From NCBI GenBank assembly GCA_963665095.1, contig OY762069.1, forward strand, positions 2,560,001-2,624,000: a stretch of 64,000 nt of DNA, in the 5' to 3' direction. The stretch's first letter is position 1; every line of letters begins with the position of its first letter. The notes beneath the pieces are model-generated. The model was not told where the DNA came from, ran no database searches, and saw only the letters and a program-made list of their open reading frames with translations. The DNA comes from an uncultured Desulfobacter sp. (lineage in GTDB: Bacteria > Desulfobacterota > Desulfobacteria > Desulfobacterales > Desulfobacteraceae). Shown here piece after piece: positions 4,902-49,165 of this stretch. Made by a program: the position numbers and the translations under genes.

Positions 4902-4904
4902 AGG

Positions 4905-6665: not shown

Positions 6666-6707
6666 ACCTGAACCCAAAATCACACTTCATAATGGAGGCG
6701 CACCCTT

Positions 6708-23884: not shown

Positions 23885-25084
23885 ATGAAACACATTGAGG
23901 AAATTGACATCCATAATGCGGAATATAGGTATCAGATTGCAATCAAGAATTTCAGAAATGATCCGGATGCAACTGATGCGAATAAAACATATATTCAGGA
24001 TTTTCTGAGCGACTGTCAGATCGGAAAGACGATTCTCAAGAAGGCCAAGAAAAAAATCAAGGCTAAGAGGCTGATGAAATACTTATACATATTAAAAAAG
24101 GTCGACCTGTTTCTTAAAAAAGATTTCAAAAATGTCACCCAAAATGACATGGAAAATTTTATCAGGAAACTGGAAAGCAATGAGCTGACGACAATGAATC
24201 AGAACGGGACATTGAAAAAGCATCATTATGGAGAATGGACAAAACATGATATAAAAATTGCATTGAAAAAATTCTACAAATGGCTTCTCGGTAATAATTC
24301 TGAGTATCCGTCAATCGTTTCTTGGATTGATACGCATATCAAAGAATCAGACCCACCTGCATTGAATAAAGACGAAATTGATTCTCTATCTGAATACGCA
24401 ATTGGTCCAAGATCGAAAGCTTTGGTCTGGTGCCTCTTTGAAACCGGTGCACGGGCAAGTGAACTTCTCAATGTCCGATTATGCCATGTATCCGATAAAG
24501 GAAAACATTTTATCATCAGAATCGAATTTTCAAAAACATTCAAAAGATCTGTACCGATTTTTGAGGGACATGAATTCTTAAAAGAATGGTTGATTGTGCA
24601 CCCTGACAAAAACAATCCAGAAGCACAACTGTTTCCGATGACATATGGGGCATTAAGGATGTGGTTGAAACGTCTGGGTAAAAAAGCACTCAAAAAAGAA
24701 GTCCATCCCCATTTAATGAGGCATAGTTATGCTACTTGGCTTGCCGGAAAGAAAGTCGGCAGGTATCAAATGTGCAAATTGATGGGTTGGGCAATGAGTT
24801 CAAACATGCCTGACAGGTATATAGACCGTCAAGGTGTAATCGAAGAAGAGACAATTCAGAGCATTAGGGGCGATGAACTCAAAAAAGAACATGCAGTCAA
24901 TCATGAATTGAAAAATGAGCTTAACACCCTTCAAATGAAATATAACCAGATCATCGAACAGCTTGAACGAAAAAAAGGGGTCGACAATCTGATGGAAAAA
25001 TTGGTTGCAGATACCGAAGTCCAACAGATTCTATGCCAGAAGATCAAGGAAATGGGCCTCAAAACAGAGTTTTCACAGCTTTGA
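23885..25084 (+). CDS. Tyrosine recombinase/integrase (archaeal XerA-like type) with C-terminal coiled coil
   Basis: ETGARASELL, SKT, HPHLMRHSYAT, MGW, RYI. Confidence 0.9.
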   Translation: MKHIEEIDIHNAEYRYQIAIKNFRNDPDATDANKTYIQDFLSDCQIGKTILKKAKKKIKAKRLMKYLYILKKVDLFLKKDFKNVTQNDMENFIRKLESNELTTMNQNGTLKKHHYGEWTKHDIKIALKKFYKWLLGNNSEYPSIVSWIDTHIKESDPPALNKDEIDSLSEYAIGPRSKALVWCLFETGARASELLNVRLCHVSDKGKHFIIRIEFSKTFKRSVPIFEGHEFLKEWLIVHPDKNNPEAQLFPMTYGALRMWLKRLGKKALKKEVHPHLMRHSYATWLAGKKVGRYQMCKLMGWAMSSNMPDRYIDRQGVIEEETIQSIRGDELKKEHAVNHELKNELNTLQMKYNQIIEQLERKKGVDNLMEKLVADTEVQQILCQKIKEMGLKTEFSQL

Positions 25085-26419: not shown

Positions 26420-28009
26420 ATGGAAATCGATACGGAAAAAATAATTGTTAAAAACAATCCAAGAAAAGATTTCGGTAACATGGACGAACTGGTTGCATCT
26501 GTCAAGGAAAAAGGTGTCATTGAACCGATTGTCGTAAAAAATCTTGGAAACGGAAATTTTGAACTGATAGCTGGCGAACGACGGCTTCGAGCTGCCAAAT
26601 CCGCAGGTTTGAAAACAATCCCTTACTGCCAATATTCTGAACAAAATGATACTGACATTGAAGAGGTCAAGCTTGTTGAGAACATGCACAGGAAAGGTTT
26701 CAATCCTGTTGAAGAAGCCGAAGCGTTCAATCAATACCTGGACATTACAAAACAAAGCATCGATACTCTGGCCCAAAAGATATCTAAGCCGAAGATGTAT
26801 ATCCAACGACGCCTTGAACTTCTGGCTCTTCCTGATGAGATAACAATTGCATTATCTGAAGGAAAAATCCAGCTTGGCCATGCCTTGATGCTTGCCCGGA
26901 TAAAAAATGTATCTGACCAGAAAAAGATGTTCAAGATGGTTGTCAGCGAAAAAATGGGTGTGCATGAAGCTGAAAAGAATATGAGATACGCAGATTCATC
27001 CGCACAACTCAAAAATTCTGTCTTTGACACTGCATCATGCAAAGGTTGCAGGCATAACGGCGGCGAACAGTCACTTTTATTTGAATCCGGGACTGGATTG
27101 AAAGACCTCTGCCTGAACAAGAGATGCTTTATCTCAAAAACTCTTGCCTGGAAAGAACAGGAAATAAAGAACCTGAAAAAAGACGGCGTCAAGGTTCTCT
27201 CCCCTACTAACCTTGAAAAGCTCAAGACCAAGCAACATGTCTCAGAATATGACGATGATTATAAATCGGTCGTACAGAAACTGTCCAAAGAGCCAGAAAA
27301 CTATGCAGTGGTGTTTGATGAAGATTATCGTGGTGTGCCCATAAAACATATCTATTGCACCAACCCAAAAGCGAGACGAGCAGCATCCAGACCTCAGACA
27401 GTCAATGATGAAAAGGAAAGATTGCAGAATGCAAATGACAAACTTAAATCCAGGGTCCATGAATTCAGAAGGAATTTCCTGATTGAAAAATCAAGACAGC
27501 TGATTGCCACTGGAAAAAAGGAATCAAAAGCCATGACATTGTACTCATTGTTAAGAGAGGGGTGTGACTGGAAGGATCGGGCCAAACGGGACCTTACCCA
27601 GGACATCATCAAATCTTCAAAGACCGGTGTTGAAATCTACGGTTGCATCGAGCCAAACTTCAGCAAGATTCTATCCCTTGATGAAAACGAGATTGACAGG
27701 CTTATAACTGAGGTCTCATCTTTGTGGATAAAAAACCTTGGCAATGAACTCCAAAAAGCTTCAGCGGTTTTCGGTGTCGATATAAAAAAGCATTTCGTCA
27801 TCACTGAAGATTATCTGAAACTTCATACAAAAGACCAGCTGATATCCCTTGCAAAAGAGATAGGTCTTGACAGACATCTGGATAAAAAAGGCATTGAGAA
27901 ATGGGACAAGGCAAAACGTTCAGAACTGATAGATAATTTCCTTGACTCCGGTTTTGACCTGAAAGGCAAAGTCCCGGTCATTATGAAAAAAGGAGTAGCT
28001 AATCAATAG
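26420..28009 (+). CDS. parB: ParB/RepB/Spo0J-family protein with extended C-terminus
   Basis: LVASVKEKGVIEPIVV, IAGERRLRAA, LVENMHR, NPVEEA, HTH, CxxC. Confidence 0.85.
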   Translation: MEIDTEKIIVKNNPRKDFGNMDELVASVKEKGVIEPIVVKNLGNGNFELIAGERRLRAAKSAGLKTIPYCQYSEQNDTDIEEVKLVENMHRKGFNPVEEAEAFNQYLDITKQSIDTLAQKISKPKMYIQRRLELLALPDEITIALSEGKIQLGHALMLARIKNVSDQKKMFKMVVSEKMGVHEAEKNMRYADSSAQLKNSVFDTASCKGCRHNGGEQSLLFESGTGLKDLCLNKRCFISKTLAWKEQEIKNLKKDGVKVLSPTNLEKLKTKQHVSEYDDDYKSVVQKLSKEPENYAVVFDEDYRGVPIKHIYCTNPKARRAASRPQTVNDEKERLQNANDKLKSRVHEFRRNFLIEKSRQLIATGKKESKAMTLYSLLREGCDWKDRAKRDLTQDIIKSSKTGVEIYGCIEPNFSKILSLDENEIDRLITEVSSLWIKNLGNELQKASAVFGVDIKKHFVITEDYLKLHTKDQLISLAKEIGLDRHLDKKGIEKWDKAKRSELIDNFLDSGFDLKGKVPVIMKKGVANQ

Positions 28010-28181
28010 CTGACAGATATTTTGGGTATCCCCCTTAATCCTGAAGGGGAATTACCCTTTTGGAGCGTGAGATGCAAGATGAAAAAAGACAGCTTGAATG
28101 ACAAACTGTGGTATGACGCATGGATAGAATCCTTTGAAGATGACTATCCAATGAATAAAAACAAGACCGAGGTGGCAAACA

Positions 28182-28550
28182 ATGTCAGGAAATGAATGGC
28201 AAAAGATAGAACCAGGTGTCTGGAAACCTGAAAATAAAGGTGACTCAATAATCGGTGTTCTTATCAGTAAAGAGCCAAAAACTGAAGATTCAAGCGCTAG
28301 ATACAATATCGAGAACCAAGACGGCATATTCCTTGTCTGGGGAACGACCATACTTGACGACCGGCTCCGGCATGTCCAGATAGGCCAAAAATTAAAGATT
28401 GTTTTTAATGGCAAGACTAAAAATAAGCGTGGCCAGGACCTGAACCTTTATGAAGTTGCTGTCGCAAAAAATCCGAAGAACAACCAAGTATTGACGGATT
28501 TGAAATTTAAAAATGGCAACGAGCTTATCCCTGCCGGAGATATCCTTTGA
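28182..28550 (+). CDS. Putative OB-fold/ssDNA-binding protein (paralogue 2)
   Basis: VWKPENKGDSIIG...VWGTTILDDRL...IGQKLKI...GQDLN. Confidence 0.55.
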   Translation: MSGNEWQKIEPGVWKPENKGDSIIGVLISKEPKTEDSSARYNIENQDGIFLVWGTTILDDRLRHVQIGQKLKIVFNGKTKNKRGQDLNLYEVAVAKNPKNNQVLTDLKFKNGNELIPAGDIL

Positions 28551-28623
28551 TTTCTTTTGTTATGATTTTTTCTTTTTCAGTCCAATGCCTTGAGGCCTAA
28601 AAGACCATTCGGAGATGAAATAT

Positions 28624-28776
28624 ATGTCAAAAGATAGCAGATGCGTATGTATGGAATGCCCTAAATGCAAATGTATGGCCCTTGTGATTCATAGTGAGGG
28701 TATATTATCAGACGGCAGGCATTATCCAATGGAACGTTGCATTAATTGCGGATTTGAACCAACAGATTTCGAATAA
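28624..28776 (+). CDS. 50-aa Zn-ribbon microprotein (not in the ORF track)
   Basis: Hand translation MSKDSRCVCMECPKCKC...ERCINCGFEPTDFE; RBS GGAG at 28611. Confidence 0.55.
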   Translation: MSKDSRCVCMECPKCKCMALVIHSEGILSDGRHYPMERCINCGFEPTDFE

Positions 28777-29003
28777 ATTTCTAAGATTTCTTTTTTTATA
28801 TTGAGATTTTCCTGTCAATTTACTGCTAAAGCTTTAAAAGCGATTTGCCATTGAGGGAAAATCGCCAATTTAAATCTTTCCCCTTCGGGTCGCTTATGAC
28901 AGCGATTGTCCTTTCTGAACCAACCTACACTAAATTTTCATTCTCCGATTTATTGTCACGGTTCGCTATCTGATATCTAGTTTGGCCCGCTCTCATTTTT
29001 CTG

Positions 29004-29621
29004 TTGAATGAGAGCGGACGCAAAGACGCCCGTTCTTGGAGGCATATAAAAATGAACCGAGAACAGATAAGTTCAGAAGTTGATGCATGGATTGCAGAAG
29101 AAGAATTACCGACCTGCTTAAAACCGGTAAAGATGTACGACAGCCTGTATCCTGGCAATGATGAAGAAGAAAGAGAAGCGTACCTGGATTTCATGCACTG
29201 GCATTTGACCAAAGATTGGGAATTATTGAACCTGATACCAGACAACAGGAACACGGACTATTTCCAGAATCCAATATCAGCAAATGAAGACAGTGCCTTT
29301 TACACGATGGATTATCGGAAAAAGGCTGGATACAGCTTCAGCGGGTATTACTTAAGATTAAAGAAAATATACGAAAGAATCAAAGACCTTGCCATATTGC
29401 ACAGCTCTATAAGCCATGAGGAAGGCAGAGCAAATATCAGGCAGAGGTACAACAATCTGGTCGATGATGAATTTCGGACCCAGAGAAACGAGATTCTTGA
29501 CACATTGAGGAAAAATCCTCAGTTGATAGACAAAGGTAAGGCATTAGAGCGATTGTCAGAACTCAATATCAGAATCAGCAAAGCATACAGCATCTGGAAT
29601 CAATATGCGGACTGGAAATAG
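29004..29621 (+). CDS. Hypothetical protein (start possibly ATG 29052)
   Basis: 205-aa ORF; RBS GGAGG before ATG 29052. Confidence 0.6.
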   Translation: MNESGRKDARSWRHIKMNREQISSEVDAWIAEEELPTCLKPVKMYDSLYPGNDEEEREAYLDFMHWHLTKDWELLNLIPDNRNTDYFQNPISANEDSAFYTMDYRKKAGYSFSGYYLRLKKIYERIKDLAILHSSISHEEGRANIRQRYNNLVDDEFRTQRNEILDTLRKNPQLIDKGKALERLSELNIRISKAYSIWNQYADWK

Positions 29622-29698
29622 GTGCATCCGGAACAGGATGCCTTCTTGATGATTCCCATTACTAAGCAGATGGGAATCATCCCGGAGGTAAACTGAAA

Positions 29699-30505
29699 AT
29701 GAACAAAAACATCCAGCAGATCCTGAATTCAATATTATCAGCCTTTGAATCAGGCGATATTCCAGAGGCAGTTGCAGTGGCAAGCTTCCCTATCCCGGAT
29801 ATTCCAAGCGCTCAATGGAGCTTTACGAATCGGACCATCCAGTTCATTAACAGGACCGGAGATGCACGAGGCTTCCGACAATGGAAAAATGCCGGTCGTG
29901 GCGTGAAAAAGGGTTCTAAGGCCATCTATATCCTTGTCCCCTGCTTTAAATCCCAAAACGATGATGAAACGGAGGATGAAGAGAAAATGGTGAAATATTT
30001 CAAAGCGACGCCTGTGTTCAGAGCAGAAGACACTGATGGGAAACCGTTGGATTACCAAAATATAGAGCTGCCTGATCTGCCATTAATCGAAAGAGCGAAT
30101 GACTGGGGGATAAATGTAAAAGCTGTTCCAGGCAATTACAGGTATTATGGATATTTTGACCCTGAGCAAAAAGAGATCGCTCTTGCCACATCAGCAGAAA
30201 AGACTTTTTTCCATGAACTGGCGCATGCAGCAGATCATATCATCAAGGGCGATCTTAAGCCTGGACAAAACCCGCTACAGGAGATCACAGCAGAGCTAAG
30301 TGCCCAAGCCCTTGCCCGTATTGCAGGCAAAGAAACAGGGGACACCATGGGCAACAGCTATCAGTATATCAAACGCTATGCGAAACAAATCAAGGTGAGT
30401 CCTCATAAAGCCTGCCTCAAAGTCCTTTCAGACACCGAGAAAATCTTGAATCTGATTATATATGGCAAGATTGACGGTTTCAATGATTTTCAAGATTCGG
30501 CATAA
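29699..30505 (+). CDS. ardC: ArdC-like antirestriction protein (ssDNA-binding domain plus metallopeptidase)
   Basis: WSFTNR, GFRQWKNAGRGVKKGSKAI, PVF, FHELAH, EITAE. Confidence 0.78.
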   Translation: MNKNIQQILNSILSAFESGDIPEAVAVASFPIPDIPSAQWSFTNRTIQFINRTGDARGFRQWKNAGRGVKKGSKAIYILVPCFKSQNDDETEDEEKMVKYFKATPVFRAEDTDGKPLDYQNIELPDLPLIERANDWGINVKAVPGNYRYYGYFDPEQKEIALATSAEKTFFHELAHAADHIIKGDLKPGQNPLQEITAELSAQALARIAGKETGDTMGNSYQYIKRYAKQIKVSPHKACLKVLSDTEKILNLIIYGKIDGFNDFQDSA

Positions 30506-30571
30506 AATTGTTTCTTATCCGTATTTTCCTTTGGCAAATAACCTCACCAACGCCTTCGAGGTGAGGTTATC

Positions 30572-30982
30572 ATGGAACTAAATGAACTTGAAGAAATGTT
30601 TGTATGTGATGTCGTTGTGGAAAGCAGCACTCAGGTGTATCACGAAATGCGTGATATCAAATCCTGGTCAAAGGAAGCCTTTGTCGCTTTTTATTTGGAT
30701 ACAAGGAACAAGGTCATTTCCCGTGAGATTATCAGTGTCGGCACACTGGATGCAGCCATTATCCATCCTCGTGAAGTTTTCAGGACAGCGATAATGCGTA
30801 ATGCAGCATCAGTTGTGATTGCCCACAACCATCCATCAGGCGGCCTCAGTCCAAGCAACGACGATATCGAAATCACAAAGCAGCTAACAAAGGCCGGTGA
30901 ACTAATCGGCATCCAGCTCATAGACCATGTGATTGTCTCAAGGGATGGATTCTATAGTTTCTGCGATAAGGGCGAAATATAA
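30572..30982 (+). CDS. radC: RadC-like JAB-domain protein
   Basis: GTLDAAIIHPREVF, AHNHPSG, PSNDD, LIDHVIV. Confidence 0.9.
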   Translation: MELNELEEMFVCDVVVESSTQVYHEMRDIKSWSKEAFVAFYLDTRNKVISREIISVGTLDAAIIHPREVFRTAIMRNAASVVIAHNHPSGGLSPSNDDIEITKQLTKAGELIGIQLIDHVIVSRDGFYSFCDKGEI

Positions 30983-31000
30983 CAGCTCTGAGATTTATTA

Positions 31001-31146
31001 ACAGCTCAGGATTATACAGTTGACTGACTCTGATCGATTCTGGGCATGGCAGGTCTTTTTTACTTCACCGTCGGTGCACCCCCAAGATCCCCCCCTATGG
31101 AGGCGGTTTTCGGGCATTTCTGGCGAAATGAACACCCTAAATCAGC
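31001..31146. repeat. 146-bp structured repeat, copy A
   Basis: 133/146 identical by hand alignment to 33312-33457, same orientation. Confidence 0.92.
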
Positions 31147-31219
31147 ACCTTAATAGAACTGCGATAGATAGATGGTTAGGGTGTTTACACCTCATAATTC
31201 AACTATAAAAGATATGTCT

Positions 31220-31450
31220 CTACCATATTTTTTGCAACAAAAAGAAGCCACCTAAACTCAAAATAATCCCAAGGACATATGTATAAAGAGTATAAAATTT
31301 TTTTAACATTTGTGTAGTCTTTTTATTCATTCTTTTTTTCCCAATTACTATCTCATTTAATAATAAAAAATATCTCACAAAAAATTTGTTTAATGAAATC
31401 AGTGATAAACCAAGTAAAATTAAAAACATACTAAAAAACTTTAAATTCAT
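31220..31450 (-). CDS. Putative 2-TM immunity protein for the orphan Rhs tip
   Basis: ATGA overlap with the orphan tip ORF; two hydrophobic segments. Confidence 0.6.
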   Translation of the reverse strand: MNLKFFSMFLILLGLSLISLNKFFVRYFLLLNEIVIGKKRMNKKTTQMLKKFYTLYTYVLGIILSLGGFFLLQKIW

Positions 31451-31953
31451 TTTTCTTCTCCTCCATCAGATGTCTTATGACTATCAGATTTGCTACTTGA
31501 ACCTGTTGGAAAACTAATCATTTGATAAGATATTTTGTCAGATGTTCCAACATCATTTGATCCTACATCTTCAAATAAATCTAAATCATCTGATGCAGAT
31601 GCAGTTGCATGAGCTTTGCCTGTATTATCAAACACTTTTGGGGTGACTTCCGCAAATTCAGATAAAGTTTTATCAACTTTAGATAATTGCTTCTCTGACA
31701 ATAAATCTGTCCTTCCCATCCTATACATCGCACCAGATGGACCTGGATTGCTTATTGGACCAGACAAGGCATCAGCAATATCCAATTCCAAAGCAATTCT
31801 ATTGTCAATGTTGGTTGGATCTTGATAAGCATTAATCATACTTATTGTTAGACTAACTGCGTCAATTGTTGCTTCCAAGGCCGAATATATTACTGCGATA
31901 GCCACCACTGAGTTTGGTTCACGACCATCAGGATCTGTATACTTATAAGGATT
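31447..31953 (-). pseudogene. Orphan Rhs C-terminal tip cassette
   Basis: Starts with the core-end motif NPYKYTDPDGR; 32 bp (31922-31953) identical to 34431-34462. Confidence 0.8.
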
Positions 31954-32028
31954 GTCTTCTTGAGGGTATTCTGCTAACATTTACTATCATTTCTCCGAGT
32001 TAATCTTATCTCAAATTACGACTTCATG

Positions 32029-32099
32029 ATTGATAACTTAGACACGGCTGTATGGATGGGCTGAAATACCCGAGGATAATCCTGTGGACAGTTATCAAT
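32029..32099 (+). ncRNA. Candidate IS110 bridge/seek RNA stem-loop domain
   Basis: 10-bp stem ATTGATAACT/AGTTATCAAT enclosing CACGG/CTGTG, two 10-nt internal loop strands and a GGG/CCC hairpin, directly before the RBS of the IS110 gene. Confidence 0.5.
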
Positions 32100-32113
32100 T
32101 GGAGGTAAATATC

Positions 32114-33235
32114 ATGTACTGCGGAATTGATGTAGCTAAAAACAAATCCAATATCTGTATAATGGATAGTCAAAACAACATCATCAGCGAGTTTGATATA
32201 GTACATGATAAGTCTGGATTTAATAAACTTATTGGTAAATTGACACATGATACAAAGATAGGAATGGAAGTTACAGGTAACTATTCAAAAGCATTGTATA
32301 ACTTTCTGAAAGATATATATGATGTCTGCTTTCTTGACAGCAATCAGATAAAGAACTTTGCAAAGTTCCATTCTCCTTTGGTAAAGAATGACGTCATTGA
32401 TGCAAGAATCATTGCAAAAGCACTTGTATATGGATTGAAAGAGATAAAGCCTATCAAGGTTGATGAGCTCAAGGATTTATGCAAACTATATCAGAAGTCA
32501 ATCAATCAGCTAATAAAATACAAATGCATGTTCAAGGATCAGTTGAATATCATCTTTCCTGAAGCTGAAAGATTATTAACTTCAAAGTTCAATAAAGGTA
32601 TATGTAACTTACTCTTGAGATATTCTTCACCTTCAGATATTAATACTGCTTCTTTAGAGGCGATTAGAGATGCGATGAACAGTGGTCTGAAGATAAAGAC
32701 TTTTGGAATCAAAAAGGCTCAGGAAATCAAGGAACTTGCTTCTGAATCGGTTGGAATTCGAGATTATCCTACAAACTGCTTTAAGCAGACAATTAAGATA
32801 ATGTTCTTCTATCACAATATGATTGAAGAATTGATTATTGAAATGGAAAAAGCAGTGATGAAAACACCTTATTCCAGATTGATGGATAGATACGGTTACA
32901 ATCTTATTGGACTTTCTGTACTTGTTTCAGAAATAGGCGATATCAGAAGGTTTGCAACGCACAAGAAGATTGTAAGCTACTGCGGGTATTCTATCACAGA
33001 ATCAAGGTCAGGAGTGTCTGTAAACAAGAAAGGACATTTATCAAAGCGAGGTAATGCAAATATTAGGCATGTGCTATATGTACAGGTGATGTCACATCTT
33101 CGAAGAAAGACTGATCTTAATGACTTCTATCAAAGATTGAAATCAAAAGGAAAACATGCAAACCAATGCATGACAGCAGTTGCAAGAAAACTTGCTGTAA
33201 GGACGTATTATGATATGATGAAGTGTCACCAATAG
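32114..33235 (+). CDS. IS110-family DEDD recombinase/transposase
   Basis: GIDVAK, GMEVTG, KNDVIDA, EIGDIRRF, SRSG catalytic Ser loop, SKRGN, AVARKL; RBS GGAGGT. Confidence 0.93.
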   Translation: MYCGIDVAKNKSNICIMDSQNNIISEFDIVHDKSGFNKLIGKLTHDTKIGMEVTGNYSKALYNFLKDIYDVCFLDSNQIKNFAKFHSPLVKNDVIDARIIAKALVYGLKEIKPIKVDELKDLCKLYQKSINQLIKYKCMFKDQLNIIFPEAERLLTSKFNKGICNLLLRYSSPSDINTASLEAIRDAMNSGLKIKTFGIKKAQEIKELASESVGIRDYPTNCFKQTIKIMFFYHNMIEELIIEMEKAVMKTPYSRLMDRYGYNLIGLSVLVSEIGDIRRFATHKKIVSYCGYSITESRSGVSVNKKGHLSKRGNANIRHVLYVQVMSHLRRKTDLNDFYQRLKSKGKHANQCMTAVARKLAVRTYYDMMKCHQ

Positions 33236-33311
33236 TGAAAACTTTGTCAACTTTATCGACGAGAGAACGACAAAATATAAATATGAGTTGCAATATCTCC
33301 AATAGATATTG

Positions 33312-33457
33312 ACAGCTCAGGATTATACAGTCGACTGACTCTGATCGATTCTGGGCATGGCAGGTCTTTTTTACTTCACCGTCGGTGCACACCCAAGTGA
33401 ACACCCTATAGTGGCAGATTTCGGGCATTTCCGGCGAAATGAACCCCCTAAATCAGC
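33312..33457. repeat. 146-bp structured repeat, copy B
   Basis: Second copy, 76 bp downstream of the IS110 stop. Confidence 0.92.
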
Positions 33458-33570
33458 CGGGAGTAAGGACTTATCTTATATTTAGTTTAGGGTGGGTAAA
33501 GAAGAACTTAAGGCAGAAGTTAAAGGTAAGAAGTTGATTATTGAAGAAGTAGAAAAATAATTTGGGATTA

Positions 33571-33858
33571 TTATTTAAGATACATAATAATTGGAAATAA
33601 TAAAAATAATAAGCAGATAAATAAATATAAATAAGCTACTATTTTTACTACAATTTCTCCTTCGTGATAGCCAAAAAATATATGTACTAACTTTCCTGTA
33701 AATTTATATTCAATGAATCTATACAACATAATTGAGATTATGATTCCAAGTGCAAATAGGAATGGTGATAGACTATTATACGATAATGTAAATATTATCA
33801 CATAGATTAAACATGTAAGTAATGCAAATTTTTTTTGGGATTTTGTCATATCACTCAT
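33571..33858 (-). CDS. Putative 3-TM immunity protein
   Basis: ATG 1 nt after the Rhs stop; hydrophobic. Confidence 0.6.
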   Translation of the reverse strand: MSDMTKSQKKFALLTCLIYVIIFTLSYNSLSPFLFALGIIISIMLYRFIEYKFTGKLVHIFFGYHEGEIVVKIVAYLYLFICLLFLLFPIIMYLK

Positions 33859-33859
33859 T

Positions 33860-35041
33860 TTAATATCCCCCCCCATATTCATCAATCTTATTACCCTCTT
33901 TTAAATCATTTTTAGAGTAATAATAAGCTTGATAACCGGCTGTAATTGGTGATTGCACTATACCGGAATAAGGTATATACCCTAATCCATTCCAAAGTCC
34001 CAGTGCCCACTTACGTTTAAATAATGCTTCCCCCGCTTGTGCAGTGGTTATTGCATTGCCACCAATACCCACTGCACCCTTAGCATATTTATTAGTTAAG
34101 GGCTTATATAAACTTGTAGCTCCAATTGCAACATTCGTACTGATTACCCTTGCATCAGAATCGATTCTCCAAGGGTTTGCATTATCATTAGCAATAATAT
34201 CATTCAAACTCATTGTTGTGCCATCAGTAGTTTTCACATTATAGTCATATTTAGGTTCTACACCAACCCTTTTCCCTTCAGAATCAAATACAGGTTCGAA
34301 AGTTACACTTGGTGCCCCTGATAATTCACCTATTAATTCATTATCCACATATATATTATGATGTGTAGATGTGATTTTATTACCATTTTTATCAGTAGTA
34401 GTTGTTTGTTCCTTTTTATGTTCAACAAACCGACCATCAGGATCTGTATACTTATAAGGATTATTCAATTCAAATGCATACCGATTAAGATTCTGAGGGT
34501 TGTAAACATCCATCAATGGATCTGGTTGTGTAAATATCCTCTTTGAAGAATCGTAATATCGAGCACCGAAGTAATTCAGTCCAGTATCATCAAGTCCTTT
34601 TCCCTCATATCCTCTTTCAACATCCCCCACTTGCTTTCCAAACGGATAATATGATACTTCTCTAACAACATCTCCAGAGCTATTAGTAACAACGGAAGAA
34701 CTACCAAGATGATCACCATGTACAAATTCATCACCAATAGCAACAAGTTCATCTGCATAGACATAGACAACATCAAAAGAACCAGAACTATTAATCACTT
34801 TAGTATAATCTCCAAAGTAATAGACAGTTTCATATGAATTGTTCTTCATGACCCTATTACCATTATAATCGTATTTATAATTTTCTGTGAAATTTGATGA
34901 ATTTACGTGAATCAACTGATTAAATGAATCATAGGTATAGGTGTATTCTCCATCATATATCATGTTTCCATTTGCATCGTAATCAATTGCATAGCATACA
35001 GGAAGCAGTACAATCATCCAAATTAATAGCAACTTTTTCAT
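33860..35041 (-). CDS. Short Rhs core plus variable tip, with its own signal peptide
   Basis: MKKLLLIWMIVLLPVCYA, YDANGN, DHLGSS, YYPFG, GLNYFGARYYD, QPDP, NNPYKYTDPDG. Confidence 0.88.
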   Translation of the reverse strand: MKKLLLIWMIVLLPVCYAIDYDANGNMIYDGEYTYTYDSFNQLIHVNSSNFTENYKYDYNGNRVMKNNSYETVYYFGDYTKVINSSGSFDVVYVYADELVAIGDEFVHGDHLGSSSVVTNSSGDVVREVSYYPFGKQVGDVERGYEGKGLDDTGLNYFGARYYDSSKRIFTQPDPLMDVYNPQNLNRYAFELNNPYKYTDPDGRFVEHKKEQTTTTDKNGNKITSTHHNIYVDNELIGELSGAPSVTFEPVFDSEGKRVGVEPKYDYNVKTTDGTTMSLNDIIANDNANPWRIDSDARVISTNVAIGATSLYKPLTNKYAKGAVGIGGNAITTAQAGEALFKRKWALGLWNGLGYIPYSGIVQSPITAGYQAYYYSKNDLKEGNKIDEYGGGY

Positions 35042-38000
35042 TGTACACTCACCTGCATATTTTCAATGGTCTCATTGTTAACTGATAAAGAGACCGAATA
35101 ATACCCAGACCCTGGATAATCATATCCAATGTAATTGAATCCTGTCGCATTCGCATCAAGGCTCATATTTCCTGTAAGATTTATAGCACCAGTATCAAGA
35201 TTCCAACTTATCACCTTGCTGGTATTATATTTGTTCCATATCTTAAACTCAAATATATCAGTAAGATAATTGAAATCTAAAACATCAATATCTCCTGATA
35301 CATCAAATGTAGTAACCCTTGCCAATTCATCATTGATATATAATTGTGCATGTTTTCCACCTGCATAATCGTATTCATATTCAATATAATTAAAGATCAT
35401 ATTATCTATTACATTACTTCCATCAATCATACCCTCACCAGTATCAATGCTCCAATTGTAATCAGTATCATTACTAAGATTATCAACTGTAAAATCAAAT
35501 ACGACGGTCTTATTATCAGAGGATAATGCTGTGAATTTTTTAGCTGCTATGGAATTAAATTCATAAATTATACTTGGTGCATGAGGTAATAAATAATCAT
35601 ATCCAATATAAAATCCAGGATCAGAAATACCAAGCAAATTTCCAATAGAATTATAGCTAAAAATCATATCAAACACTCCTGTTTTATTCGATGCTACCAA
35701 CCTATCCAGATCGTCATATTCCATGGTTGTATTTTTGGAATTGACTGAATCTTCAATTTTGACAATATTCCCGACTGAATCAAATTCATATCCTAAATCC
35801 TGAATACTGCTTGTCTTTATCTCTTCTAACCTAAAGTTTTCAGAATCATATGAATACTCTGTCACAAGATTATTTGCATATGTCTTATTGATAATGAATC
35901 CGACAGAATTATAATTGAAATTATCAATAACATCTGAAATGCTCTCAACTAGGTTCTGGTCATTATAGGTATAAATCAGGTCCTTTGATGGGATAGACTT
36001 GTTGAGTACCCTATCCATAGAGTCGTATGTCAACTGGTCTACAAAAGTATAACCATCAATTTTCCTTGTCTCTGTTGTGACCCTATACCTATCATCGTAA
36101 ACATATGTGGTCTCTGTACTGTCATTTACACCATACAATGTCCCATTCAATTCAACATCATAGGAATACTCAATATCTTCTTTTGTTAAAATCCTATCAA
36201 GGGCATCATATGTCATATTAATTGTATTTATTTCATCCGTTTGAGATATCAAATTTCCGTTTGCATCGTAATTATAATTCACAGTGCCTGAGTCCGGGTC
36301 TTCTTGAGATATTCTTCTTCCAAGAGAATCAAACTCGTATTGCCATTCATTATCCAAATTATCTGTAATCTTGACCAAATTTCCAAGTGAATCATATTCA
36401 TAGGTTGTATTATAGATTTCATTTTCATTGTATTCTCGTACAGTAATTACCCGTCCATATGCATCCTTATCGAACTCTTTTTTATTTCCATTCTCATCTG
36501 TCACAATTTCAGTCCAATGATCATACTCAGTACTTTTACTTGTCCCATCAGGATTTATCACTTCAACGACTCTTTTTACTGCATCATAGACAGTTATTGA
36601 CTGATTGACTGTTTGTGGATTAGAATAGTTCTCGAAGAATTCAATCATGTATGGATTATCTCTTTGCACAGGCAATCCATCTTCATCATAATAGACATTA
36701 TTGACAATCTGGCCTGATTCTGCATCAGTCTTCATCTGTATCCATCTGCCATATCCATCATAGAATACATAAGTGTCATATGTATCTGTTCCAGACTCCT
36801 TTTGCTTAGTTACGATTGACTCAGGCGCAATACCATCAAAGTCATAGATGTATTCTTTTGTAGGATTTGAAACAGAATCATAAGGCTTAATCTCTTTCAA
36901 TTGCCTTCCAAATACATCATATGTGTAGTTTGTAGCAATCCTGTTCGAATCAATCTCTGCAAGGACATTGCCAGTTGAAAAGTCATAATCGTATTCAATT
37001 GTATGACCTTTTGGATTTGTTGATTTAGTCAAGAAAGTACCAGTACTATCATACTCATTAATAGTTGAATATCCTCTCGCGTCTGTTGAATTGATTACAT
37101 TTCTAAACAAGTCATATTCATAGTATTCATTCAGGTCTGAACCCGTATCTAACCAATACTTTATCCTTGTAATGTCTCCGATGATTGGTGGCTCACCATA
37201 TCCTAAGTTATCATAGTAGTAGCTGGCTTCTCTTATTTTGCTGAAATCAGAATCATAGATTGAATTCTTTTTCGGAGTATTTACTATCCATGCAGTCTCA
37301 TTATAGGCATATTCAGTGTAATTATAATATTCATCACCAGAGATAGATATATCCCCAAGATAGCTGGTCTTATTTATATTTCCATAACCATCATATTCAA
37401 ACGTAGTATTTACGACTTTTGGGCCTGTAGTAGAACCATCAAAGATATATTCTTCTTGGGCATCCAGATGCGAGATGAAATGATCATCAACTGTTGAACT
37501 GCTCCAAAGATATGAGATGTTCTGGAATGGTGCTTGTGATTTATTCAATATTGTCTCTTCATACAATTTCGACTTTAAATCATCAGATTGATGATAACGA
37601 TCCTGGATAATGGCATTATCTTTCGTCTGGATTGCATACTTGAATCCTCTGAACTCTCTATCTTCATAATCATGGACACCGCCTGAAAAGTTATAGGAAA
37701 TAGTTATTAAATTTTGATGATCTCCATCCATGCCATTAAATTTTTCAATCGAATCTACAACCCATAAATTATATCCTAAATCAGAGAATGAATCATCGCC
37801 AGAATTGTTCAACTGTGTCGAAGGCTTGTAATTAATAGTAATATTGCCTCCCAATGGGTGATAGATCCTTTTTAAGAGATAAGAACCTGCTGCATTGTTA
37901 ATCCAAGCATGTCTGGTGCTGTCTATTCCTCGAAGCAAATCAGTGTAACCATCTCCATTCACATCAGATAATCTTAGACCTAAATCATGACTATCGGAAT

Positions 38001-39915
38001 CAATAAAATCCATTACCGGTTCCCAATTGTCATCCCTTACCCAGCCTGTGCCATTATTGATCCAAGCTTTTTCATTATTGTTATTGCCATGTAGAATATC
38101 AACCAATCCATCACCAGTAACATCAGCAAGTCTCACTCCAAGTTCTCTGTTTCCATATGGGGCTACAAAACATACATCATCATCAGTTGGGAAATACCAG
38201 TTATGGTCTTGAGTCCATCCTGTTCCAGTATTGATCCAGATATCTTTACCACTGCTTCCACAATTACCAGTGCTTGTCTCCATTGCTCTTAAAATATCGG
38301 TCAATCCATCTCCATTTATATCAACTAACCTTACGCCTAAATCATCTCCACCATTGTCATTCAGACAAGTCGGTATTCTCCAAGTAGTATCACCATCAAA
38401 TCCATTCCCTGTATTGATATAAGTGTCTCTTTGGTCTGTAGAACAGCTCCCTCCATATTCATATCCTCTGACAATATCTAAAAGTCCATCTCCATTGACA
38501 TCAGATTCAATAATTCCCATAGTACCCCCAGTTGAAGTTACAAAACACTTTGGTGGTTGCCAAGAATCATTATTAACCCAATCAGTTCCATTGTTTATAT
38601 AAGCGGTCTTCTCACTATCCCCGCAAATACTTGCAGAATATCTACCTTTCAAAATATCTGGGTAGCCATCATTGTTCAAATCAACGATTCTTATACCCAT
38701 ATCTTCTCCGTTCTCTCCTGCGATATATGCAGGTGGAGCCCAATTGTCATTATTATACCATCCTGAACCATAATTAATATAAGCAGTTTTTGAACCCCCA
38801 CTTACAGTGTCTTCTCCCTTTACCATATCCATGAGCCCATCTCTATTTACGTCTGTAAATCTAGTACCCTCATCTTCATGATAACCATCTTCAAGAAATT
38901 TTTCAGGAGGATCCCATGTACTGTCACCTAACCACCCAGATGTTAACTCTTCATATTCAAATTTAATAGGCGGCAATGCAGTTGAATTATCATTGCCATA
39001 TTGGGTGATATTTGAGACTGATACAATAGTATTGATTCCAAGATTTTGATAGCTGAAATGGTATCTTCTGACTAAAGAATCATTATAGAATACATTGATA
39101 TCAGAAAGCATTCGAACCTGAGAAAATTTATTGCCGTTTACATATGACTCAAGGAGATTCTCTCTATCACTTGTTTCATATTCAAATTCTATTGATCTTA
39201 ATCTATCATTATTGTATTCAATTTTATCCATATATACGGCAGCAGAATCACCTGGGAACGGATCTTCATTATAATAATAATATATAGAGTTATCATGTAT
39301 ATCATTGACCTGCTCTAAACTCCACTTATATACAAAATTGTTACTATATGTTGAGACATGCTCGCTTTGGTTAGTATAGCCGAAGGTATACGCTGTACCA
39401 TCTTTAGCCTTTACAATCCAATAATCCCCATTAGAATTATCTCCATCTGTCTTTTTTTCGATATGCAGATAAGACTCGATTTTAGTGACATAAATAGAAT
39501 CATTTATAGGAATCAGATCATAACTCTGACCGTTTAAGGATAATTTATATTCATCATCTGAAGTATCGCTTTTTGTATAGTTGATATCTCGAAATACATA
39601 ATCATCTGATAATGTCCATCCCGAGCCGACTATTGAATATTTGTCGGTTGCAGAGTGACTATTGTATGAAACGGATATATGAGGAGACAAACCATTTGTA
39701 CCAGCTGGTACGCTTATAGGGTAATCGTATGTGAATGACCCCATATTCAGGCTTGTAGTACCGTAATTGGCATCCATATATTTATATTCAGGACTTACAG
39801 GATCATGCAAAAACGGCTGATATGTTATTATAGGATCGGCTTGAACAATGACTGGAATAAAGAATAAAGCCAGTAATACTACAATAATTCCTTTTAGATT
39901 TTTTCCTTTGTTCAT
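35038..39915 (-). CDS. Large secreted TcB/Rhs-shell protein (SpvB-like, FG-GAP/VCBS, toxin-mid, YD repeats, C-terminal Ig-like region)
   Basis: Signal peptide, VPAGTNGLSP...YNS...GSGW, repeated DVNGDGLxD, REFRGF, many YD repeats; no DPxG core. Confidence 0.88.
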   Translation of the reverse strand: MNKGKNLKGIIVVLLALFFIPVIVQADPIITYQPFLHDPVSPEYKYMDANYGTTSLNMGSFTYDYPISVPAGTNGLSPHISVSYNSHSATDKYSIVGSGWTLSDDYVFRDINYTKSDTSDDEYKLSLNGQSYDLIPINDSIYVTKIESYLHIEKKTDGDNSNGDYWIVKAKDGTAYTFGYTNQSEHVSTYSNNFVYKWSLEQVNDIHDNSIYYYYNEDPFPGDSAAVYMDKIEYNNDRLRSIEFEYETSDRENLLESYVNGNKFSQVRMLSDINVFYNDSLVRRYHFSYQNLGINTIVSVSNITQYGNDNSTALPPIKFEYEELTSGWLGDSTWDPPEKFLEDGYHEDEGTRFTDVNRDGLMDMVKGEDTVSGGSKTAYINYGSGWYNNDNWAPPAYIAGENGEDMGIRIVDLNNDGYPDILKGRYSASICGDSEKTAYINNGTDWVNNDSWQPPKCFVTSTGGTMGIIESDVNGDGLLDIVRGYEYGGSCSTDQRDTYINTGNGFDGDTTWRIPTCLNDNGGDDLGVRLVDINGDGLTDILRAMETSTGNCGSSGKDIWINTGTGWTQDHNWYFPTDDDVCFVAPYGNRELGVRLADVTGDGLVDILHGNNNNEKAWINNGTGWVRDDNWEPVMDFIDSDSHDLGLRLSDVNGDGYTDLLRGIDSTRHAWINNAAGSYLLKRIYHPLGGNITINYKPSTQLNNSGDDSFSDLGYNLWVVDSIEKFNGMDGDHQNLITISYNFSGGVHDYEDREFRGFKYAIQTKDNAIIQDRYHQSDDLKSKLYEETILNKSQAPFQNISYLWSSSTVDDHFISHLDAQEEYIFDGSTTGPKVVNTTFEYDGYGNINKTSYLGDISISGDEYYNYTEYAYNETAWIVNTPKKNSIYDSDFSKIREASYYYDNLGYGEPPIIGDITRIKYWLDTGSDLNEYYEYDLFRNVINSTDARGYSTINEYDSTGTFLTKSTNPKGHTIEYDYDFSTGNVLAEIDSNRIATNYTYDVFGRQLKEIKPYDSVSNPTKEYIYDFDGIAPESIVTKQKESGTDTYDTYVFYDGYGRWIQMKTDAESGQIVNNVYYDEDGLPVQRDNPYMIEFFENYSNPQTVNQSITVYDAVKRVVEVINPDGTSKSTEYDHWTEIVTDENGNKKEFDKDAYGRVITVREYNENEIYNTTYEYDSLGNLVKITDNLDNEWQYEFDSLGRRISQEDPDSGTVNYNYDANGNLISQTDEINTINMTYDALDRILTKEDIEYSYDVELNGTLYGVNDSTETTYVYDDRYRVTTETRKIDGYTFVDQLTYDSMDRVLNKSIPSKDLIYTYNDQNLVESISDVIDNFNYNSVGFIINKTYANNLVTEYSYDSENFRLEEIKTSSIQDLGYEFDSVGNIVKIEDSVNSKNTTMEYDDLDRLVASNKTGVFDMIFSYNSIGNLLGISDPGFYIGYDYLLPHAPSIIYEFNSIAAKKFTALSSDNKTVVFDFTVDNLSNDTDYNWSIDTGEGMIDGSNVIDNMIFNYIEYEYDYAGGKHAQLYINDELARVTTFDVSGDIDVLDFNYLTDIFEFKIWNKYNTSKVISWNLDTGAINLTGNMSLDANATGFNYIGYDYPGSGYYSVSLSVNNETIENMQVSVQ

Positions 39916-44269: not shown

Positions 44270-46110
44270 AACCCAAACTAATCCCAACCAAGGCAGATAA
44301 TGAAATAAAGGAATGCATTGACGAAAACCGATGTTTCTCGGTTATTTCTGGCGCAGGCTCAGGCAAAACCCAATCCTTACTCACAGCTCTTTCTTACATC
44401 CGGGAGTCCAAGGGCGGCACATTGCGAAAAACCGGCCAAAAAATTCTTTGCATCACATACACAAACCGTGCAGTTGACGTCATATTCAGTCGACTAAATT
44501 TCGATGATATATTTAATGTGTCAACGCTTCATAAATTCTTGTGGTCTGCCATAAAAAGGTTTACCACTGATATAAGAAATACTCTTATTGACTTTCATAT
44601 CCCTGCTCAAATCGAAAAAAAACGAGTAGATGATAACGGTGGGAATAGTAAGAAGGCTATCCGTGCAAGAGAAAAGATTGCTTCTTTGGAAGAGGATATT
44701 ATATCACTTCAAGATGTGGACACTTTTTCTTATAGTGAAAATTCCACATTCAGCAATTATAGCGAAGGCCAACTTAATCATGATGATATCATTGCCATAG
44801 CTGGATATCTTATCACCAATAGTTTGATCCTTCAAAAAATTCTATCCCAACAATATCCATATGTTTTTGTTGATGAAGCCCAGGATACTTTTCCTGAAAT
44901 TGTAACCGCACTGAATACTCTCTGTTCAGGTAGCGGATTTCCCGTTATTGGCTATTTTGGTGATCCTGTTCAACAGATCTATGATAAACGTGCCGGAGAT
45001 TTCTCAGGCCCAGACGGTTTCAAATTAATCAAAAAAGAAGAGAATTTTAGATGTTCTAAAGCTGTTGTGAATCTTCTGAATGCATTTAGAAAGGATATTC
45101 AACAGGTGTCGGCAGGTAATGCTTCAAAACTTGAGGGAAGCGTAGAGATTAGACTTGTTGCTGCTGAAGCGCCTGAAGGTCCAAGAAAGCGATATACAGA
45201 TGATCAAATTCAAAGAGCTTCAACTAAATTTAATGATATCTTGAAAATCTGGGGTCTGCATGAGGACGAAGAAACCAAGTATTTGTTTTTAGTTAGGCAG
45301 ATGATTGCAAAACGCCTTGGATTTGAAAGTCTGCAAAAATTATTTACTGGTCCATTTGCTTCAGCTCGTGCTCAAGAGGAATACGAGTCCGGAGAACACT
45401 TTTTGCTGAAACCCTTTATTAAGGTGTTATCTCCTTTGCTGATTGCACACAGGACAAACAGTCAGAAAGAACTACTTGATATCCTTCGTAAATATTGTCC
45501 GACGTTTAACCCCAAGGGAAAGAATGCCAGAAGATCTTTGAGGCAAATGAGGGATCTGGCTAAAAAACTTGTTGAGGAGTTATCAAGAAAATGGAAGAGC
45601 CAATCTATAAAGGAAATCTTGCTATTTTGTCAGGCTAATGAAGTTATCGAGATTTCCGAGCGGCTTTCAGGTCACCTTAAACGATCTCCTCGAACTGAAA
45701 ATTATGACGATGACCTTCATGCAATAGAAAAGGAAGACTGGTTAGTTGATGAATTCTTTAATATGCGTGCGGATGATATCGAACCATATGCTGCTTTTAT
45801 ACATGATAACACTCCTTATAGCACTCAACACGGTGTGAAAGGAGAAGAGTATAAAAACATAGTTGTGGTTTATGATGATATTGAGGCTGCATGGAATCAA
45901 TATAGCTTCATTAAGATGCTTGTACCAGAGATCGCTGGAAATCCGACAGAAGGCCAACTCGACAGGACAACAAGACTTGCTTATGTTTCCTTTTCAAGAG
46001 CTGCTGAAAACCTTCGCATTCTTTTGTTTACACCTGACCCTGAAGGGACAAAGAGTGTTTTGATCAAGAAATCGCTATTTCAGGAAGATCAAATTGTTAT
46101 TGGGCCATGA
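44266..46110 (+). CDS. gajB: UvrD-like helicase, GajB-like
   Basis: [52 protein letters not shown] overlap with the OLD nuclease. Confidence 0.8.
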
Positions 46111-49100: not shown

Positions 49101-49153
49101 ACCGCTTCAACAGCTCGTGTCTGGTAGGCCTGTTTTTTGAATTTAAGTTTCAC
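46097..49153 (-). CDS. res: Type III restriction endonuclease subunit
   Basis: [46 protein letters not shown]. Confidence 0.93.
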
Positions 49154-49165
49154 TTTAGGCCTCCA

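Follow-up and report, generated by a model that had tools for sequence, protein, structure and literature searches.

Why should the gene of an IS110-family recombinase lie between two toxin tips of an Rhs array, and could its product be what moves the tips? The question is raised by a window of 64,000 nt (the whole stretch of DNA that was analysed) from the 6.9-Mb, single-contig genome of an uncultured Desulfobacter sp., in which an Rhs gene of the TcB/TcC-like type with its fused tip, an orphan tip and an intact IS110 gene are interleaved with two pairs of direct repeats. The answer proposed here, to which about even chances are given, is that the locus is a device for the RNA-guided integration and excision of tip cassettes. 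The evidence consists of the anatomy of the locus, a clade-wide association of this IS110 lineage with Rhs arrays, a conserved structured element upstream of the recombinase genes, and a correspondence between the arms of that element and conserved Rhs motifs, with cassette boundaries located at the sites that the arms specify. IS110 bridge-type recombinases and Rhs orphan arrays are each known; new here are the clade-wide association of the two and the guide arms programmed against Rhs codons.

Anatomy of the locus

The elements of the locus are listed below in window coordinates; aa stands for amino acids and ORF for open reading frame.

30996-31146: repeat A, 151 nt, a solo copy right after the RadC stop codon; half-site 31002-31017, GG at 31009-31010
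31220-31450, minus strand: imm2, hydrophobic protein of 76 aa, from its position the presumed immunity protein of tip 2
31447-31980, minus strand: orphan tip-2 ORF, 177 aa, reading MLAEYPQED, then the core-end peptide NPYKYTDPDGR, then the tip
31922-31953: first copy of a 32-bp exact direct repeat (orphan junction); guide-type site 31942-31957, GG core 31949-31950
31954-32026, plus strand: non-coding stretch between the first 32-bp copy and the stem-loop, with no stable structure
32027-32102, plus strand: conserved stem-loop of about 75 nt at the upstream end of the IS110 gene, candidate guide RNA, 67.4 bits with covariance model R1
32114-33235, plus strand: intact IS110-family recombinase gene, 373 aa from ATG, or 383 aa from a GTG at 32084
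33307-33457: repeat B, 151 nt, lying 71 nt beyond the IS110 stop codon; half-site 33313-33328
33571-33885, minus strand: imm1, multi-pass hydrophobic protein of 104 aa, from its position the presumed immunity protein of tip 1
33860-35041, minus strand: small, TcC-like Rhs ORF, 393 aa, with a signal-like N-terminus, the last YD repeats, Rhs_assc_core and tip 1
34431-34462: second copy of the 32-bp repeat (main junction); guide-type site 34451-34466, GG core 34458-34459
35038-39915, minus strand: large, TcB-like Rhs ORF, 1625 aa, with SpvB, FG-GAP, TcdB_toxin_midN and RHS repeats

Read in the direction of the Rhs gene, the order is core end, tip 1, imm1, repeat B, IS110 gene (antisense), tip 2, imm2, repeat A and RadC. 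An earlier note, made from the sequence of the window, had described this layout of repeats, tips, immunity ORFs, IS110 gene and Rhs core, and every element was found at the place given for it. Its Rhs core is present as well, albeit in two parts: the gene consists of two ORFs joined by an ATGA stop/start overlap (35038-35041), and the repeat lies in the small second ORF. Small ORFs homologous to the latter, starting at residues 1-5, are found in the related loci L004, L007, L008, L009, L012, L013, L014 and L087 (the collection of loci is described below), and the ATGA overlap of two Rhs ORFs also occurs in L004. Because the split recurs in relatives, a frameshifted pseudogene seems less likely than a conserved pair of the TcB/TcC type. 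None of the 44 other ORFs of the window that were scanned is TcA-like, and the search did not extend beyond the window.

Membership of the Rhs family follows from matches to PF05593 (8.9e-29) and TIGR01643 and from the presence of DPDGR followed by unrelated tips in the main and the orphan copy. The Rhs_assc_core domain (TIGR03696) occupies residues 131-203 of the small ORF and ends in DPDGR, which leaves 33860-34430 for tip 1. Repeats, a core domain ending in DPxG and a variable C-terminus, the features of Rhs/YD-repeat polymorphic toxins, are thus all present. Tip 1, tip 2, imm1 and imm2 have no relatives in Pfam, NCBIfam or PDB, and the tips are taken for toxins, and the neighbouring small ORFs for their immunity proteins, from their positions. 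Residues 10-90 of the orphan tip-2 ORF are 51 % identical to a tip in the Rhs array L085.

The two copies of the 32-bp repeat are 2509 bp apart, and an exact repeat of this length cannot have arisen by chance in 12 kb. In both copies the reading frame is the same and yields NPYKYTDPDGR. If the DNA between them were deleted, tip 2 would therefore be attached to the core in frame, and in this respect the product that the earlier note had predicted for a crossover at the repeat is upheld. The copies are identical at every synonymous position, whereas the equivalent pair in the closest relative, L082, is 88 % identical, which suggests a recent event. Repeats A and B, with a spacing of 2311 bp, are 91 % identical over 151 nt (blastn) and 87 % identical without gaps over 166 nt counted from 30981 and 33292. 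Neither the 32-bp nor the 151-nt repeat has more than its two copies in the 6.9-Mb genome. Along the reading direction of Rhs, a copy of the 151-nt repeat stands behind each immunity gene, and one copy also follows the IS110 gene.

The IS110 protein contains the domains DEDD_Tnp_IS110 (PF01548, 9.2e-28) and Transposase_20 (PF02371, 5.5e-15), scores 180.4 bits with the NCBIfam model transpos_IS110 (NF033542; cut-off 140) and matches PDB chains of the IS621 and ISCro4 transposases with E values of about 1e-9. Residues D6, E52, D93, D96 and S299, which we take to be the catalytic DEDD and Ser residues, are invariant across 51 homologues and align to the ISCro4 chain. With its intact ORF and these invariant columns, the enzyme looks active. 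The non-coding stretch at 31954-32026 is presumably the left end of the IS110 module. The extent of conserved DNA around the IS110 gene varies from pair to pair of relatives, and the ends are not fixed by comparison.

Association with Rhs arrays across the IS110 clade

Relatives of the recombinase were collected by alignment-based searches, a query with the single protein having returned none. The close set comprises 36 loci (numbered with the prefix L), 34 of them distinct once the duplicates L093 (= L012) and L083 (within L006) are removed. As a control, 108 loci of distant IS110 genes (22-32 % identity) were used, which amount to 629 kb compared to 225 kb of close-locus DNA. Rhs sequence was scored by tblastn with the Rhs proteins of the window, plus a motif search. 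The closest IS110 proteins are 45-56 % identical to that of the window, and their named sources are Woesearchaeota and other metagenome bins. The loci of the clade come from Nanoarchaeota, Woesearchaeota, Bilamarchaeaceae, metagenome-assembled genomes (MAGs) assigned to 'Methanosarcinales', Gracilibacteria, Coatesbacteria and unbinned metagenome contigs.

Rhs sequence was detected by tblastn in 27 of the 36 close loci, and L015 was added by motif. Counted over distinct loci, 26 of 34 sit in Rhs tip arrays, and the eight without Rhs are contigs of 1.4-3.3 kb; in the distant control, Rhs was found in 4 of the 108 loci. Three of these four form one Lachnospiraceae group with the same arrangement, which hints that the association of IS110 with Rhs evolved or persists beyond the clade studied. 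Genome-wide searches showed the clade to be present as a single copy in the genome of the window and in each of the five other genomes searched whole. The check suggested in the earlier note, namely whether homologous IS110 genes recur between Rhs tips, gives a positive answer, and the random contexts with ordinary ends that would have spoken against its idea are not what was seen.

The ORF maps show a common form of array: core end, tip, small hydrophobic ORF, in some places IS110, then a core-end fragment, another tip and so on. In 13 of the 26 loci, as in the window, the IS110 gene is flanked left and right by Rhs segments, and wherever both flanks are present, the segment between the Rhs sites always holds a tip and small ORFs as well. 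In the Lachnospiraceae MAG loci L022, L027 and L028, whose IS110 proteins are about 28 % identical to that of the window and which give no match to the stem-loop described next, the IS110 gene stands tail-to-tail with Rhs core ends and tips.

A conserved stem-loop upstream of the recombinase genes

The stem-loop consists of an outer stem (P1), a second stem (P2, CACG/UGUG), an internal loop and a third stem (P3, UGGG/CCCG) closed by a hairpin loop. Each side of the internal loop measures about 9 nt, the 5' arm ending in GG and the 3' arm in CC. In a cmsearch scan of the close loci together with the window, model R1, a covariance model built from 24 copies (alignment A3), gave 32 matches. Each of them is on the strand of the gene and upstream of an IS110 start, and 8 of the 32 lie outside the set from which the model was built. 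The element precedes 28 of 29 IS110 gene starts, L094 being the sole exception, and the model has no match in 100 distant IS110 loci (612 kb). Exchanges of G-C to A-U pairs in P3 were seen in four sequences. P1 forms helices of 8-13 bp of differing sequence, and its longest helix has a mean length of 8.3 compared to 5.1 in shuffles. A scan of 28000-36000 against Rfam at E <= 1 returned only a chance, snoRNA-like match.

In L095, a second stem-loop with a second IS110 start is found at 7076-7200, and its guide class is unlike that of the first copy of the same locus. Boxes of the TTTATATA type were noticed by eye 40-45 nt upstream of the stem-loop in L009, L011, L082 and L086, a spacing like that of archaeal promoters. 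The stem-loop of the window has neither a TTTATATA-type box nor a clear bacterial promoter.

Correspondence of the loop arms to Rhs codons

When the bridge-RNA rule, as set out in part of PMC11208160, was applied to the internal loops, a core dinucleotide shared by both arms, usually GG/CC, was found in 27 of 31 parsed loops. Each of these loops specifies one contiguous site of 16 bp, one arm reading sense and the other antisense with an overlap of 2 nt, and the core is in most cases CC/GG, out of a proline codon. Each predicted 16-mer was decoded and the resulting 5-residue peptide was sought, with at least four of five residues matching, in the Rhs regions of the other sources, with 100 arm shuffles per guide as control. 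For 18 of the 27 guides the decoded Rhs peptide is present in 3 to 21 other sources (p <= 0.04 each), while arm-shuffled controls average about 0.3-1.1 sources. The motifs addressed by the guides are the following.

NNPY or GNPY: the window, L006, L012, L082, L084, L086, L090 and L103
YDPQ: L004, L005, L013 and L096
QPDT: L007 and L087
YxPFG: L016
YHPxE: L089
DHLG-like: L098
YDGFA of the YD repeat (YDGFANL): L009 and L011

The arms thus vary among at least six Rhs motifs while the stems stay constant, and guides differ even between close relatives.

In each of L009 and L011, the site in the DNA matches the guide at 15 of 16 positions (p 0.003 each). In L011, the IS110 unit is flanked by a direct repeat of 565 nt (582-1149 and 4375-4939) that begins at the guide-site matches. 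The guides of L009 and L011 differ by one base, GAT versus GAC, and this difference is mirrored in their sites. Compared to the position that corresponds to the window's best guide match inside the core (given below), these sites are shifted upstream by only about 10 codons, and here the exchanged unit takes in the last third of the core. L012 consists of two tandem units, each with an IS110 gene, whose 3' arms differ by A/G. The 3' arm of the first unit, AGGTAATCC, recurs at 3419 and that of the second, GGGTAATCC, at 6677, in both cases at the start of the next orphan. Guides and sites therefore co-vary in L012 as they do in L009/L011. The 3' arm of L086 matches the start of its next orphan (4037) at 9 of 9 positions, and those of L004, L005 and L082 match theirs at 8 of 9. 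The 5' arms fit the adjacent site less well, usually at 4-5 of 7 positions, and the mismatches often fall on third codon positions.

The candidate guide of the window

On the plus strand, the site predicted for the window is made up of the 5' arm, with GG as its last bases, and then the 3' arm in reverse complement. The best match to this site in the window is the following.

36646-36661: match of 13/16, the 13 being contiguous, inside the large Rhs ORF at codons RDNPYM

This match tops all 127,970 positions and has the same orientation as the junction sites; if 36646-36661 recombined with the junction sites, 2.2-4.7 kb would be lost. For the main junction (34451-34466) the score is 11/16, which places it within the top 62 of the 127,970 positions, and the orphan junction (31942-31957) scores 10/16. 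In both 151-nt repeats a half-site of 9/16 is present, the right guide arm matching at 6 of 7 positions. The GG core occupies positions 28-29 of the 32-bp identity, 3 nt before the copies diverge. Read as its reverse complement, the 3' arm agrees with the core side at 8 of 9 positions and with the first bases of the IS110 left end at 7 of 9. The window fits the pattern of the clade, although it is among the weaker cases.

A proposed cassette mechanism

The events that could have led to the present layout can be reconstructed as follows. A module of about 2.5 kb would have integrated into the TcB/TcC-like Rhs gene at a coding site at the end of the core. In the Rhs direction, this module would comprise the remainder of a core end, tip 1, imm1, the 151-nt repeat and, antisense, the IS110 gene with its guide stem-loop. 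Its integration would have fused tip 1 to the core in frame and displaced an older module of tip 2, imm2 and repeat downstream as an orphan. The stem-loop would act like one binding loop of a bridge RNA, its 5' arm pairing with one DNA strand and its 3' arm with the other, such that the arms, overlapping at the two-base core, specify a 16-bp site in a conserved Rhs motif. Bounded by two Rhs-type sites, the module may also exist as a circle with one such site. Since the sites on the circle and in the Rhs gene would then be of one kind, a single loop could suffice for both, and the guided recombinase would join the site of the circle to that of the gene, thereby loading a new tip. Excision between the direct 32-bp sites, 2509 bp apart, would return tip 2 to the core. 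We infer that a guide RNA is made from the stem-loop, that the guide sites are where the recombinase cuts and that these events produced the present layout.

The tip-swapping interpretation advanced in the earlier note is supported in part by these results, and the clade-wide Rhs association and the Rhs-directed guide arms make it more specific. Extended to the whole clade, at somewhat less than even chances, the proposal is that IS110 recombinases with single-loop guides constitute an RNA-programmed cassette system for Rhs/TcC-type toxins, in which circular modules of tip, immunity gene and recombinase would be captured at conserved codons of the toxin gene as in-frame fusions and released again, a functional analogue of integrons spread across DPANN archaea, the candidate phyla radiation (CPR) and ordinary bacteria.

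Contrary evidence and alternative explanations

A number of results weigh against the proposed guided device. The thermodynamic signal of the stem-loop is nil (z 0.02), and a promoter scan gave 8 sites where 7.0 were expected, none of them upstream of the stem-loop on the plus strand. One stem-loop per gene was found in 27 of the 28 sources with a match, tandem copies (2-3) occurring only in L012, whereas the bridge RNAs of the IS621 type have two loops; a second loop of divergent sequence may exist. When the best DNA match in the whole locus was compared with that of shuffled arms, only 6 of 27 guides beat the shuffles, and the peptide test was failed by 9 of 27. The guide of the window fits its junctions only in part (the 11/16 and 10/16 given above, with 3/7 for the 5' arm), its best site is internal to the core, and the window is not significant in the shuffle tests (p 0.11 for the best DNA match, p 0.28 for the peptide). 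No role in the scheme could be assigned to the 151-nt repeat. In four public sequencing runs (one study), contigs assembled from 31-mers break at 58-nt and 32-nt repeats and are equally compatible with both orders of the modules; since the joint of two identical 32-bp copies makes no new 31-mer, such contigs cannot show recombination products. No alternative joint is recorded for them, no recombination product was seen, and no RNA run was found to contain the stretch.

The remaining results of this kind concern the relation between IS110 genes and arrays, and most of them would suit an ordinary, selfish IS110 element whose guide targets Rhs coding DNA while tips are exchanged by homologous recombination at the core end, with no role for the insertion sequence (IS). 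This is the main alternative, less probable than the proposed device but to be taken seriously. According to parts of PMC11208160, guide RNAs direct IS110 elements to specific sites, with a preference for conserved targets that occur repeatedly. Other members of the family target REP or attC sites. When L004 is compared with L005, the conserved DNA around the gene comprises just the stem-loop region and the ORF (4867-6129). The array of L004 has orphans without an adjacent IS110 gene, and the IS110 gene can have either orientation relative to Rhs. L004 and L005 share a tip cassette, but the core ends to which it is attached differ, and the joints fall within the DPDGH codons and not at the guide site; another exchange process must therefore operate too, most simply homologous recombination. 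IS110 copies are decayed or truncated in L015 (4112-5217), L066 and L100-L103, as expected of a decaying parasite, and the partial fit of the window's guide to the flanking junctions points in the same direction.

Truncated IS110 genes were observed fused directly to Rhs core or tip fragments, and in L103 the switch to a YD repeat takes place at a TATGA microhomology. The junctions of the truncated copies in L103 and L102 have just short microhomology. The truncated, fused copies show that rearrangement and decay are frequent in the arrays.

Against a purely selfish element it can be argued that none of the loci shows a single Rhs frame broken only by a minimal IS; where both flanks are present, the stretch between the sites always contains a tip and small ORFs too. 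In the window, what follows past the 3' side of the IS110 gene is repeat B, imm1 and tip 1, and not the upstream half of a target. A single copy in six of six genomes is unusual for a proliferating IS. Homologous recombination alone would need extra events, as a double crossover in the core and repeat A would be expected to replace tip 2, not to displace it. The variable orientation of the IS110 gene, together with the extra genes in some units, also speaks for a site-bounded cassette more than for a minimal IS.

A domesticated, locus-bound switch, in which the recombinase would move modules only within its own array and change the expressed tip as a form of programmed toxin variation, is improbable. 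The single copy per genome, always in an Rhs locus, would agree with it, as would guides that are aimed at the host locus itself and direct sites that flank the modules in such a way that excision would bring the next orphan into frame. However, the Rhs-IS110 segment has a lower G+C content than its flanks and sits in a mobile/defence island, and horizontal movement is implied by the occurrence of the closest relatives of the recombinase in DPANN archaea and CPR, given that the host, with its genome of 6.9 Mb, is a bacterium, as its 16S genes show by their size and score. Guides that differ between close relatives are what is expected of retargeting elements, and an excised, non-replicating circle would lose both the recombinase and the active tip.

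Coincidence combined with shared ancestry, that is, one ancestral IS110 insertion that was inherited with a 5'-untranslated regulatory element whose arms resemble Rhs codons without function, is very unlikely: even though the loci are related and their counts not independent, the fold lacks thermodynamic support and 21 of 27 guides are not significant in the whole-locus DNA-match test, the arms switch among at least six Rhs motifs on constant stems, a sense and an antisense arm on one contiguous site with an overlap of 2 nt is the specific geometry of bridge RNAs, guides and sites co-vary in L009/L011 and in the two units of L012, and a second, distant IS110 group (28 % identity; L022, L027, L028) also lies beside Rhs tips.

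Relation to known systems

With the bridge recombinases of IS621 and ISCro4, the system shares the two domains and the conserved DEDD/Ser positions. It also shares a structured RNA encoded upstream, the arms of which pair with opposite strands and overlap at a two-base core; for the known elements this is described in parts of PMC11208160, and here it is predicted from sequence. It differs in having one detectable loop instead of two, in the lack of a match in Rfam, in a target that lies in a coding motif of one gene family and in the single copy per genome. In addition, the unit between the sites carries toxin tip and immunity genes here, and the recombinase gene is found in either orientation.

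Natural IS110 elements that carry cargo and use half-matches at their boundaries are described in parts of a preprint (10.64898/2026.08.14.744561), and ISPpu9 forms alternative module circles, as reported in sections of PMC12288879. Extra DNA between the boundaries and half-matched guides are features that the locus has in common with what these portions of the two sources describe. To these can be added boundary sequences related to one another, from which alternative circles could be built, and a repeat downstream of the transposase gene of which a solo copy exists: the window has interleaved pairs of boundaries and the solo repeat A. The cargo in the preprint is, in the passages concerned, mostly plasmid-derived DNA and resistance genes, whereas here a tip is fused in frame to a resident gene. 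The words 'Rhs' and 'toxin' have no occurrence in the text of that preprint, and a full-text search of one literature collection found no paper linking IS110 to Rhs tips.

Tip shuffling in polymorphic toxins and the exchange seen in orphan arrays of Rhs and contact-dependent inhibition (CDI) systems have so far been attributed to general homologous recombination. The arrays resemble the present one in having a main gene, orphans that keep a piece of the core end, and cognate immunity genes, and in the switching of tips through deletion between core-end repeats. Arrays of this kind are the subject of Poole 2011 (PMC3150448) and Koskiniemi 2014 (PMC3967940). The arrays considered here differ from them in that they contain a recombinase of their own, the guide of which appears to be directed at the core end, and in that orphan boundaries are located at guide-specified sites. 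If the proposed device exists, it would provide a second, programmable route of tip exchange, in which the guide reads the conserved codons of the toxin itself, and it would explain the sharp boundaries of orphans.

Integrons have circular cassette intermediates. For the module of the window, a circle is proposed by inference, and in this the two would be alike; both also consist of arrays of promoterless cassettes captured at a recombination site beside an expressed position. The differences are that integrons use the tyrosine recombinase IntI and folded attC sites, compared to a DEDD/Ser enzyme and RNA-specified coding motifs here, and that capture is transcriptional there and by protein fusion here. 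IS1111 members targeting attC were reportedly described by Post and Hall in 2009.

The invertases Piv and MooV are related to IS110 and flip a segment between inverted sites, as in the pilin inversion of Moraxella. An IS110-type enzyme tied to the variation of a surface or competition factor is common to both cases. The analogy with a Piv-like invertase drawn in the earlier note does not hold beyond this, since the repeats are direct throughout, the two 32-bp copies and the two 151-nt copies as well as the four GG-centred candidate sites. From such an arrangement deletion and integration are expected.

Should the proposed device be confirmed, bridge-type recombinases could be bound to one host gene family and would not only be free insertion sequences, and a guide found in nature that needs only one loop for both partners would be informative about the evolution of bridge recombination. 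The occurrence of the system in DPANN, in CPR and in the defence island of a large bacterial genome points to a cross-domain gene flow of competition weapons.

The 151-nt repeats

The 151-nt repeat was not found in the genomes of 60 relatives, and in the 36 close loci only words at the level of chance were encountered. The repeats fold no better than shuffles (z -1.8 and -0.85), and the stem-loop model gives no match in them. An IS1111-style downstream bridge RNA, the right end of the IS and a conserved 3' flank of tip cassettes were considered for this element, and none of these roles could be established. L011 and L015 have the same interleaved topology with unrelated repeats, on the basis of which the 151-nt repeat may be the shared 3' flank of a family of modules that is carried along with them. 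A role in recombination may also be envisaged, by analogy with the solo downstream module of ISPpu9 and given the half-site present in the repeat. To the left of repeat A (30981-31020), over the RadC stop codon, a degenerate second half-site motif was noticed, AACAGCTC...GAGATT beside AACAGCTCAGGATT.

Additional genes in and around the arrays

Between the IS110 gene and the next orphan tip, pairs resembling toxin-antitoxin systems were observed in L004 (6207-6856) and L005 (6171-6847 and 2564-3569). Judged by eye from sequence motifs, they combine a nucleotidyltransferase with a HEPN-like protein or an AbrB-like with a PIN-like protein, and they differ between these otherwise related arrays. 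In three units, two of L012 (2996-3217 and 6217-6438) and one of L082 (6122-6391), the IS110 gene is met at its 3' end by a convergent small gene that is winged-helix-like; the window has no counterpart of it, and repeat B is found at that place. A conserved small ORF resembling a zinc ribbon lies about 100-250 nt upstream of the stem-loop in L006, L007, L008, L085, L087, L088, L090 and L092 and occurs at 4422-4613 in L012; it belongs to the DNA that is conserved with the IS110 gene. In the presumed left end of the IS110 module of the window, a sigma-70-like match (32014-31986, minus strand) faces the orphan tip-2 and imm2 ORFs, such matches not being more frequent than expected by chance.

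The G+C content of the Rhs-IS110 segment is 0.26-0.39 compared to 0.40-0.46 on the left flank, which suggests a foreign origin. The Rhs locus is located inside a mobile/defence island, of which the RadC gene downstream of repeat A is a part. Between 9000 and 30982, this island carries genes for a PD-(D/E)XK nuclease, an rve integrase with an AAA protein, a pAgo-like protein with a Piwi domain (14299-16296) and GmrSD (18703-20559), as well as a HerA-like ATPase, a tyrosine integrase (23885-25084), ParB-like and ArdC-like proteins and RadC. To the right of the Rhs locus lie an OLD-family ATPase with a UvrD helicase (42170-46110) and a type III restriction-modification system (46097-51046). Farther to the right, these are followed by DUF4391 with an SNF2 helicase, an IS66 element with a DruA-like ORF, and a second RadC gene (63322-63972).

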